Source: Escherichia phage PhiR68_2 | Strand: one strand, 5' to 3' | Sequence record: PV340576.1 | DNA length: 49,669 bases | Shown: piece by piece, positions 4,473 to 5,054 of the stretch | Layout: the number at the start of each line of letters is the position of its first letter | Position numbering within the stretch: position 1 is the stretch's first letter | The notes under the pieces: model-generated | The model's database searches: none | Told to the model about the DNA's origin: nothing | The model's input: the letters and a program-made list of their open reading frames with translations, nothing else | Program-made: the position numbers and the translations under genes

Positions 4473-4547
4473 GGCTGAACTCCTGAAAATGGCTGTGAAA
4501 AAATCGCCCGCGGAATGCCAGGCTGATTCGGAAAACAGGAAAGGGGA

Positions 4548-4838
4548 TTAGTGATTCAGACCGTTGCCGCGTCCGTCGAGAAAAACTTCCACGAGCAAGT
4601 CACGGGTATAAGTGCGCTCAATGCCGCGATGCAGATAAAGTCGTCCGCGTAAATTAGCTGATGCAGTCCAGGTACCATCTTTGCGTTTGACCAGCATTCC
4701 TGGCATGACCGCACCGCGATTAACGGTCTGCGTTCCGTAATGTTGATGAACCATAAAAACTCCTGCCCGTAAGCTGGGCTGCTGAACATATAAAGACTTC
4801 TGCGCGTATTCAGGCGGTGGATGGCCGCCGGTTGTCAT
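4548..4838 (-). CDS. hypothetical protein, 96 aa, first ORF downstream of leftward operators (slot of N/cIII/kil)
   Basis: ATG at 4838 with GAGG 13 nt upstream; overlaps a 77-aa alternative-frame ORF (4556..4789); identity unknown. Confidence 0.35.
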   Translation of the reverse strand: MTTGGHPPPEYAQKSLYVQQPSLRAGVFMVHQHYGTQTVNRGAVMPGMLVKRKDGTWTASANLRGRLYLHRGIERTYTRDLLVEVFLDGRGNGLNH

Positions 4839-5054
4839 AACTAAGCCGCCTCGTTGAAGCGACTAAGGTATGAAATGTTGAGTTGATTTCAGCTGGTCAC
4901 ACCGACGTTCACGCGTCCGTTTCATCCCTCGCACTCCCCGAAGCCTGCTGAAATTCAAGCTGCGGATCTAAGCGGTCATCGCAACGGTGAATCAGGTGGT
5001 TGCCGTATCGTTGTGTTGTTGCGATATGGTGATAATAGCTATTGCTATTGGTGA

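Follow-up and report, generated by a model that had tools for sequence, protein, structure and literature searches.

The HK022-type put RNA is about 70 nucleotides (nt) long, folds into two stems and suppresses terminators in cis, an activity that is blocked by mutations in the zinc-binding domain encoded by rpoC. To our knowledge, there are very few examples of RNA-only processive antitermination, its mechanism has been solved for put alone, and the eps-associated RNA (EAR) of Bacillus is the only other class described. N-less lambdoid phages are already known, as is put, a cis-acting RNA of phages HK022 and HK639 which binds the zinc-binding domain of the RNA polymerase beta' subunit (PMC9378689), and a recent survey guesses 'put' wherever N is missing (PMC12315714). 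Here, we analyzed a stretch of 49,669 nt from Escherichia phage PhiR68_2 (PV340576.1; hereafter the window) and focused on the leader of its early-left pL transcript, where pL and its operators (oL) are separated from gam by ca. 550 base pairs (bp). We found that, in E. coli, the pL leaders of N-less phages most often contain, in place of put, a conserved, unannotated element occupying the put slot. This element, which makes up the 5' half of the leader, is called X in the following.

X resembles putL of HK022 and HK639 in standing first in the pL transcript of an N-less phage, in being non-coding, in its length on the order of 100 nt and in having at least two predicted hairpins, whereas it shares no sequence or covariance-model similarity with putL, is confined to E. 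coli and has an antiterminator activity that is putative. Its restriction to the left operon is shared with HK639-type phages. Like the N/nutL region of lambda, X lies directly downstream of pL and upstream of kil-gam-bet-exo, and N-bearing Stx phages possess the downstream recombination module and kil-gam junction of the window. Unlike lambda, however, the window contains no N-family protein, boxA/boxB or nutR, and its sole arginine-rich open reading frame (ORF) comprises 20 codons and is not conserved as a gene. The Rac prophage shares with the window a homologous Kil protein (34% identical to KilR, BLASTP E 2e-11), an extended untranslated leader that separates kil from the immunity region, and a YdaS/YdaT-type immunity class, but its leader sequence is unrelated and it carries sieB, ydaF and ydaG between racR and kilR. 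The small RNA KilS is annotated in the Rac kilR leader (L212 2906-3003, E. coli K-12); neither this leader nor KilS qualified as a homologue of X, both being unrelated in sequence.

An element in the slot of put

In two put-bearing relatives, L147 and L040, canonical putL stands between flanks shared with the window, exactly where the window has X. The shared upstream flank consists of the TATTAT -10 element and a 5'-terminal hairpin (CAUCGAAACGAAACAUCGA against AUAUCGCAACAACACAACGAUA) and the shared downstream flank of UUCAUACCUCAG followed by the stem-loops SL1 and SL2 (Table 1). L147 additionally has operators related to those of the window and a cI gene that is 73% identical at the DNA level. 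Among 120 IMG/VR loci carrying the downstream module, 68 hold X and at least 13 hold put (12 identified by a put covariance model among 100 searched, and L147 by sequence). All put-model matches fell in loci without X, and X and put were never found together. In ca. 40 module loci neither element was present, and there pL lies more than 1.8 kb upstream.

Of 5426 complete E. coli genomes, 2210 (ca. 41%) carry the X core, always with at least 90% identity and never annotated; HK639-type put was found in 127 genomes. All copies of X were near-identical and confined to prophages of E. coli (68 of the initial 120 IMG/VR loci, 0 of 23 loci from other genera), and no diverged homologues were detected among 23 Kil loci of other Enterobacteriaceae and ca. 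190 IMG/VR loci. At least 14 isolated phages carry X at 92-100% identity, for example 4A7, 4C10, Perceval, PhiR70_1, 1W, 3W and D2, and X has been retained in phages of at least three immunity types, its homology breaking off sharply where transcription starts. The presence of the same leader in so many distinct isolated phages indicates a functional arrangement and makes it unlikely that, as an earlier note on this DNA had considered, antitermination is lost and the phage defective.

X is constrained. In an alignment of 104 relatives, 10% of X sites showed a nucleotide diversity (pi) above 0.05, compared with 28% of kil third positions, 43% of gam third positions, 27% of kil-gam intergenic sites and 3% of kil first and second positions, although these figures are approximate since a few mosaic alleles raise the diversity of the flanks. 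Intermediate-frequency polymorphisms are 3-4 times fewer in X than in adjacent synonymous sites or intergenic DNA of the same genomes. Common polymorphisms in X convert G-C or A-U pairs to G-U or are located in loops or bulges, and they fit the predicted hairpins H2 and H3 and an alternative long-range helix in the X core (UUGAAUUUCAGC with GCUGAAAUCAA) equally well.

The 5' border of X was defined by comparison with heteroimmune relatives, in which homology begins at query position 46 of 5070-4839, corresponding to ca. 5025. From this edge we infer a pL transcription start at ca. 5025-5027. Because homology to phages of other immunity starts at this same point, X is a module of the transcript that lies outside the operator region. 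A third copy of the operator half-site (ATTGCTAT) at 7537-7544 overlaps the -10 region of pR, and three of the four copies in the window are found at pL or pR. The first 60 nt of the leader are C-rich and G-poor (C/G 1.73) and the X core is G-rich (C/G 0.5-0.6). In L064-type variants, H1 is absent and the first ca. 40 nt are replaced, which leaves the core from ca. 4990 as the obligatory part. CA-rich-loop 5'-terminal hairpins like H1 also open the pL transcripts of HK639-type put phages (L004 ca. 3441-3465, L147 and L040). The 3' arm of H1 holds a -10-like hexamer (AACGAT in the window) that could give rise to a sigma-dependent promoter-proximal pause.

The 3' border of the leader is set by kil. 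The earlier note had listed a 96-amino acid (aa) ORF of unknown identity (4548..4838, -) overlapping a 77-aa ORF (4556..4789, -) in front of gam. While all coordinates and distances hold, the 96-aa ORF can be identified as Kil. It falls into PHROG_294 ('Kil protein for bacterial septation inhibition', E 1.4e-37), and PF27398 is present in 140 of its database homologues, many of them named 'cell division inhibitor'. Homologues are mostly 68 aa long, as is the protein annotated in NC_049946, and an AGGAG Shine-Dalgarno sequence is positioned 5 nt upstream of the internal ATG at 4754. Thus, kil most likely starts at this ATG and encodes 68 aa, and based on its homologues the product of 4548-4754 would be an inhibitor of FtsZ and cell division. 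The N-terminal extension of the 96-aa ORF was rejected as coding since it overlaps a cross-genus RNA module with indels that are not multiples of three; upstream extensions of Kil in other genera share no sequence. The 77-aa ORF, which belongs to no Pfam or PHROG family, was likewise rejected. The interval therefore consists of kil and a ca. 270-nt untranslated pL leader.

The 3' half of this leader is a structured module of lambdoid early-left operons. In SL1, both partners vary at six of the nine pairs, pairing is kept in 95% of cells and the covariation score is 0.349, compared with 0.148 for shuffled and at most 0.107 for slid controls. Using nhmmer, the module was detected in the put phages HK639, CobraSix and S9-5 and next to kil in several other genera, among them Citrobacter, Huaxiibacter and Siccibacter; copies are located, for example, at L004 4649-4763, L006 4365-4487 and L007 2499-2628. 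A 32-mer from the module recovers more than 120 IMG/VR contigs, in which the downstream genes vary and an intrinsic terminator is usually found upstream. Across genera, the segment from SL2 to SL3 varies by indels whose lengths are not divisible by three. SL2 (GGCGG-CCAUCCA-CCGCC) is followed by a U-run in HK639, where it is annotated as a terminator, and in several other phages, whereas the U-run is absent in the window. The SL1-SL3 module may be a processing or translation-control element.

Table 1. Features of the window discussed in the text, in order of position; hairpins are predicted folds
Feature	Position	Strand	Details
int	68-1231	-	followed by xis and small ORFs
Canonical intrinsic terminator	2034..2052	-	AGGGAGC-UACAG-GCUCCUU and U6; intergenic, upstream of a TraR/DksA-like gene, xis and int
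Strong hairpin with U-rich tail	2625..2647	-	inside 62-aa ORF 2529-2717; dG -17.6 kcal/mol
exo	2708-3388	-	
bet	3385-4170	-	
gam	4176..4472	-	RecBCD inhibitor; PF06064, E 3e-65
kil-gam hairpin	4506..4523	-	weak, terminator-like, U6; dG -11.3 kcal/mol
kil	4548..4754	-	KilR-family cell-division inhibitor, 68 aa
Structured module, 3' leader half	4755..4879	-	order: UCAUACCU(C/U)A, SL1, UUAGUUAUGAC, SL2, GCGCAGAAGUCUU, SL3, Shine-Dalgarno
Shine-Dalgarno AGGAG	4764-4760	-	
SL3	4779-4765	-	
SL2	4829-4813	-	
SL1	4864-4844	-	
Arginine-rich micro-ORF	4863..4925	-	20 codons, MKRTRERRCDQLKSTQHFIP (MKRTRERR...); stop TAG 4865-4863
X, 5' leader half	ca. 5026-4880	-	ca. 150 nt, first part of the pL transcript
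X core	4880..4990	-	in the put slot
H3	4920-4901	-	ACGGACG-CGUGAA-CGUCGGU
H2	4966-4937	-	UCCG-C-AGCUUG-AAUUUCAG-CAGGCU-U-CGGG
H1, 5'-terminal hairpin	5006..5026	-	UAUCG-CAACAACACAA-CGAUA
pL promoter and oL	5032..5073	-	sigma-70 promoter scan
pL promoter elements	5060-5055 and 5037-5032	-	-35 TTGATA; 17-nt spacer; -10 TATTAT
Operator half-sites	5041-5048 and 5066-5073		around pL
Intrinsic terminator	5207..5228	-	closes the cI-cargo operon, directly upstream of oL; dG -16, z -3.3
cI	6776-7504	-	
YdaS-type cro	7573-7806		right of cI
YdaT-type cII-like gene	7831-8376		right of cI; followed by O, P and nin-region genes
Q-like antiterminator	16083-16481		

Searches for N, nut and put

The earlier note had recognized no N, nutL or cIII between pL and gam. 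Pfam, PHROG, boxA/boxB and Rfam scans all bear this out, and their absence from the window phage is real. No Pfam or PHROG match to the N, Nun or cIII families was obtained for the ORFs in 4473-5261 and the other early ORFs scanned, nor to the CIII family for the interval ORFs and the small ORFs of the pL operon. boxA (CGCUCUUA-like) and lambda boxB were not found near pL or pR, and no 5-bp stem with a GNRA-type pentaloop was present in 5030-4470 (-) or 7520-8400 (+). The ops element (GGCGGTAGnnTG) is missing from the leader and from the surroundings of pL and pR; the only GGCGGTAG in the window is located at 10004 (+), within the P gene. The leader had no Rfam match, either in a permissive scan of 4300-5400 or in a scan of the whole window at gathering thresholds. 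Matches to isrJ (weak) and PrrF correspond to the terminator hairpin of the cI operon. No copy of the leader, comparable to putR or nutR, follows pR, and no segment of it recurs at other places in the window, such as the vicinity of pR'. A LexA box was rejected by eye because the CTG-N8-CAG in the leader is mis-spaced.

In case of put, which the earlier note had named alongside boxA/boxB as a structure to be looked for, a covariance model (R1) was built from eight known put RNAs and run over the whole window with filters off. Known put RNAs scored 58-99 bits and putR copies outside the training set 56-58 bits. The best match in the window, at 10.8 bits and E 0.41, fell within bet on the wrong strand, and none was obtained in the leader, which excludes a canonical put. 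X lacks the invariant put motifs GAACGGC, GUCGG and GGCGGG...CGGCAAU. An apparent resemblance to put, made up of UCGGGGAGUGCG...GGAUGAAACGG and of CGGaCG/CGUCG compared with put stem I (C10-G14 with C30-G34, CGGCG/CGUCG), was not significant. Together with local alignment, the covariance model rules out that X is a diverged put. The same model finds no putR in HK639 or CobraSix, and HK639-type phages with putL and no putR thus provide a precedent for a left-only element.

Contrary to the earlier note, an arginine-rich motif does exist in the leader, although the micro-ORF encoding it does not behave as a conserved gene. The micro-ORF is in frame with the 96-aa ORF and kil and overlaps H3. In 118 relatives, anchored outside the ORF, its start is ATG or GTG, mostly GTG, and its stop TAG (ca. 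40%) or CAG, the latter opening the frame into kil; the database protein P0114 is such a read-through. Four variants contain a 5-nt frameshifting insertion. In the tail of the micro-ORF, ca. 6 non-synonymous changes compare with 3 synonymous ones. The arginine codons coincide with the CGN arms of palindromic H3 and show no synonymous variation, which points to a constraint acting on the RNA. A tblastn search with the peptide returned the same phage group only, and neither a phage N protein nor any other protein resembles it. The motif is probably a by-product of the CG-rich hairpin, and a fusion of an arginine-rich segment to Kil was rejected based on the variable start, stop and frame and the lack of homologues. 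Of the unrecognized factors suggested in the earlier note, a small protein is therefore disfavored while an RNA element is consistent with the evidence, if unproven.

Possible functions of X

We tentatively read X as a non-homologous functional analogue of put, that is, a cis-acting leader RNA making pL transcription resistant to terminators, and assign this reading a rough probability of 0.4. The pL transcript would start at ca. 5025 with X, comprising the 5'-terminal hairpin and a G-rich core with two predicted hairpins. Like put of HK022/HK639, X would target in cis the very RNA polymerase from which it emerges; once modified, the polymerase would resist pausing and termination and read through the kil-gam hairpin, the hairpin at 2647-2625 and the terminator at 2052-2034. 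This would allow gam-bet-exo and xis-int to be expressed without an N protein. SL1-SL2-SL3 and the Shine-Dalgarno sequence (ca. 125 nt) would represent a separate, shared 5' untranslated region (5'-UTR) module feeding kil translation. That X binds RNA polymerase or suppresses termination we infer only. It is somewhat doubtful that X joins put and EAR as a third class of RNA-only processive antiterminator with an evolutionary origin of its own; EAR RNA would be a conceptual neighbour if X antiterminates, its organism, operon and sequence being unrelated.

The left operon does contain terminators that such an element could serve. The hairpin at 2647-2625 is conserved in 65 of 74 related loci and the terminator at 2052-2034 in 57 of 74 X loci as well as in the put phage L040. 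The U6 tract of the kil-gam hairpin is found in 15 of 116 related loci, most of which read GAUAUUUU. With this hairpin weak and variable, a strong need for antitermination rests mainly on the two distal sites. The right operon seems to need no such element. Between pR and Q no convincing intrinsic terminator was found, the first strong one being located at 18181-18202, past Q, and the early-right operon (7520-16083, +) contains no nut- or put-like element after pR. It looks N-independent by design.

Several observations weigh against an antiterminator function of X. Sharing a position with put is no proof of sharing its function, and local alignment of X with put was no better than with shuffled sequences (p 0.39 and 0.10). 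The X fold is no more stable than that of shuffled sequences (z 0.05 to 0.66), although genuine put RNAs are likewise unremarkable (z -0.7 and -1.2). All ca. 118 copies are at least 90% identical and show no compensatory double changes, for which reason the exact fold is not established. The low diversity of X could partly reflect a recent spread of the module and not purifying selection alone. Further, given the missing U-run of SL2, the window contains no intrinsic terminator from pL to kil, the kil-gam terminator is weak with a non-conserved U-tract, and internal promoters could bypass the two distal terminators.

In the main alternative, a rather unlikely one in our estimate, the leader serves as a 5'-UTR that regulates the toxic kil gene and does not antiterminate processively. 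Its first, C-rich and untranslated stretch would draw Rho/NusG and silence leaky pL transcripts in the lysogen, H2, H3 and SL1-SL3 would adjust the stability of the mRNA, its processing by RNase III or the translation of kil, and genes past kil would be reached by partial readthrough or from internal promoters. The C/G ratio of the first 60 nt and the length of the untranslated leader fit this proposal, as do the position of SL3 next to the Shine-Dalgarno sequence, the presence of the SL1-SL3 module upstream of many different genes and the scarcity of terminators up to gam noted above. Homologous Rac kilR is silenced by NusG-dependent termination (PMC5793797) and has its own leader small RNA, KilS. 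However, a kil 5'-UTR does not account for the proven antiterminator put occupying the identical slot in sibling phages with the same downstream module, the C-rich H1 part is dispensable in L064-type variants while the conserved core is G-rich, and the conserved distal terminators would still have to be explained. The two roles are not mutually exclusive and could coexist.

It is quite unlikely that antitermination has been lost altogether, with X being a remnant or filler of module shuffling whose recent spread mimics conservation and with left delayed-early genes weak or off. The confinement of X to E. coli, its shallow diversity and its unexceptional folding stability would be expected in this case, and lambda pL-operon genes other than N are dispensable for lytic growth. 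On the other hand, X polymorphism is 3-4 times below that of neighboring synonymous and intergenic sites, X persists across immunity types with a sharp edge at the transcription start, and both 41% of E. coli genomes and viable phage isolates carry it. In addition, xis and int are required for excision once the prophage is induced, and a conserved terminator precedes them.

A trans-acting factor loading at a site in the leader, be it phage Q, an unrecognized phage protein or host RfaH, is improbable. A Q-like protein is encoded in the window and several early ORFs belong to PHROG families of unknown function, but Q proteins load at promoter-proximal DNA sites of late promoters and no part of the leader recurs near pR' or elsewhere in the window. 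The leader also lacks ops, and the cargo genes beside pL differ among X-sharing relatives.

Least probable of all is a mini-N peptide, in which H2, with a degenerate boxA (CGCUUAGA) in front of it, would take the place of boxB and be bound by the arginine-rich motif of the micro-ORF: although RTRERR is similar to RRRERR of lambda N, the start is preceded at 7-8 nt by GGAG, the succession of boxA-like sequence, hairpin and arginine-rich ORF mimics nutL-N and four changes are synonymous (AAA to AAG, ACT to ACA, CAT to CAC, TTC to TTT), the variable start and stop and the 5-nt frameshifts yield products of 20, 29 or 125 aa depending on the phage, the tail evolves roughly neutrally, the arginine-rich codons form the arms of H3 and lack synonymous variation except for lysine AAA/AAG, there is no space for the NusA- and RNA polymerase-binding regions of N, and neither a homologue among phage N proteins nor a nut-like copy after pR was found.

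Phage context and relevance

The window represents a lambdoid prophage of the Bievrevirus or DLP12-like kind which looks intact, unlike cryptic Rac. Over 4400-5300 it shares 99.5% identity with phage PhiR70_1 and 95.5% with phage 4A7. Two low-GC ORFs between cI and pL (5227-6682, -), at the position of rexAB, encode a 149-aa predicted membrane protein and a 341-aa protein, neither of which was matched significantly by a Pfam or PHROG family. Since 4A7 and PhiR70_1 carry other cargo here, the two ORFs may form a superinfection-exclusion or defence cassette. Cargo beside pL varies among X-sharing relatives. A tRNA 3' fragment at the window edge (1-49, +), beside int, probably marks the attachment site. 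In the late region, 43748-43946 (+) matches the IS009 RNA family with 220.9 bits. Contigs from metagenome-assembled genomes labelled Bacillota and Atopobium (L011 and L020) hold E. coli-phage Kil at 84-99% identity, likely due to bin contamination.

If X does antiterminate, the lambdoid prophage family most common in E. coli would harbour a third RNA-only class in its pL leader. A second unrelated RNA acting on the same polymerase would show how many RNA routes lead to a terminator-resistant state, and X would be a compact new part for the control of synthetic operons. X lies upstream of toxic kil and of recombination and excision genes in the prophages of about four in ten sequenced E. coli. 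Whatever its mechanism, the X leader probably governs induction, excision and Kil toxicity in very many strains.

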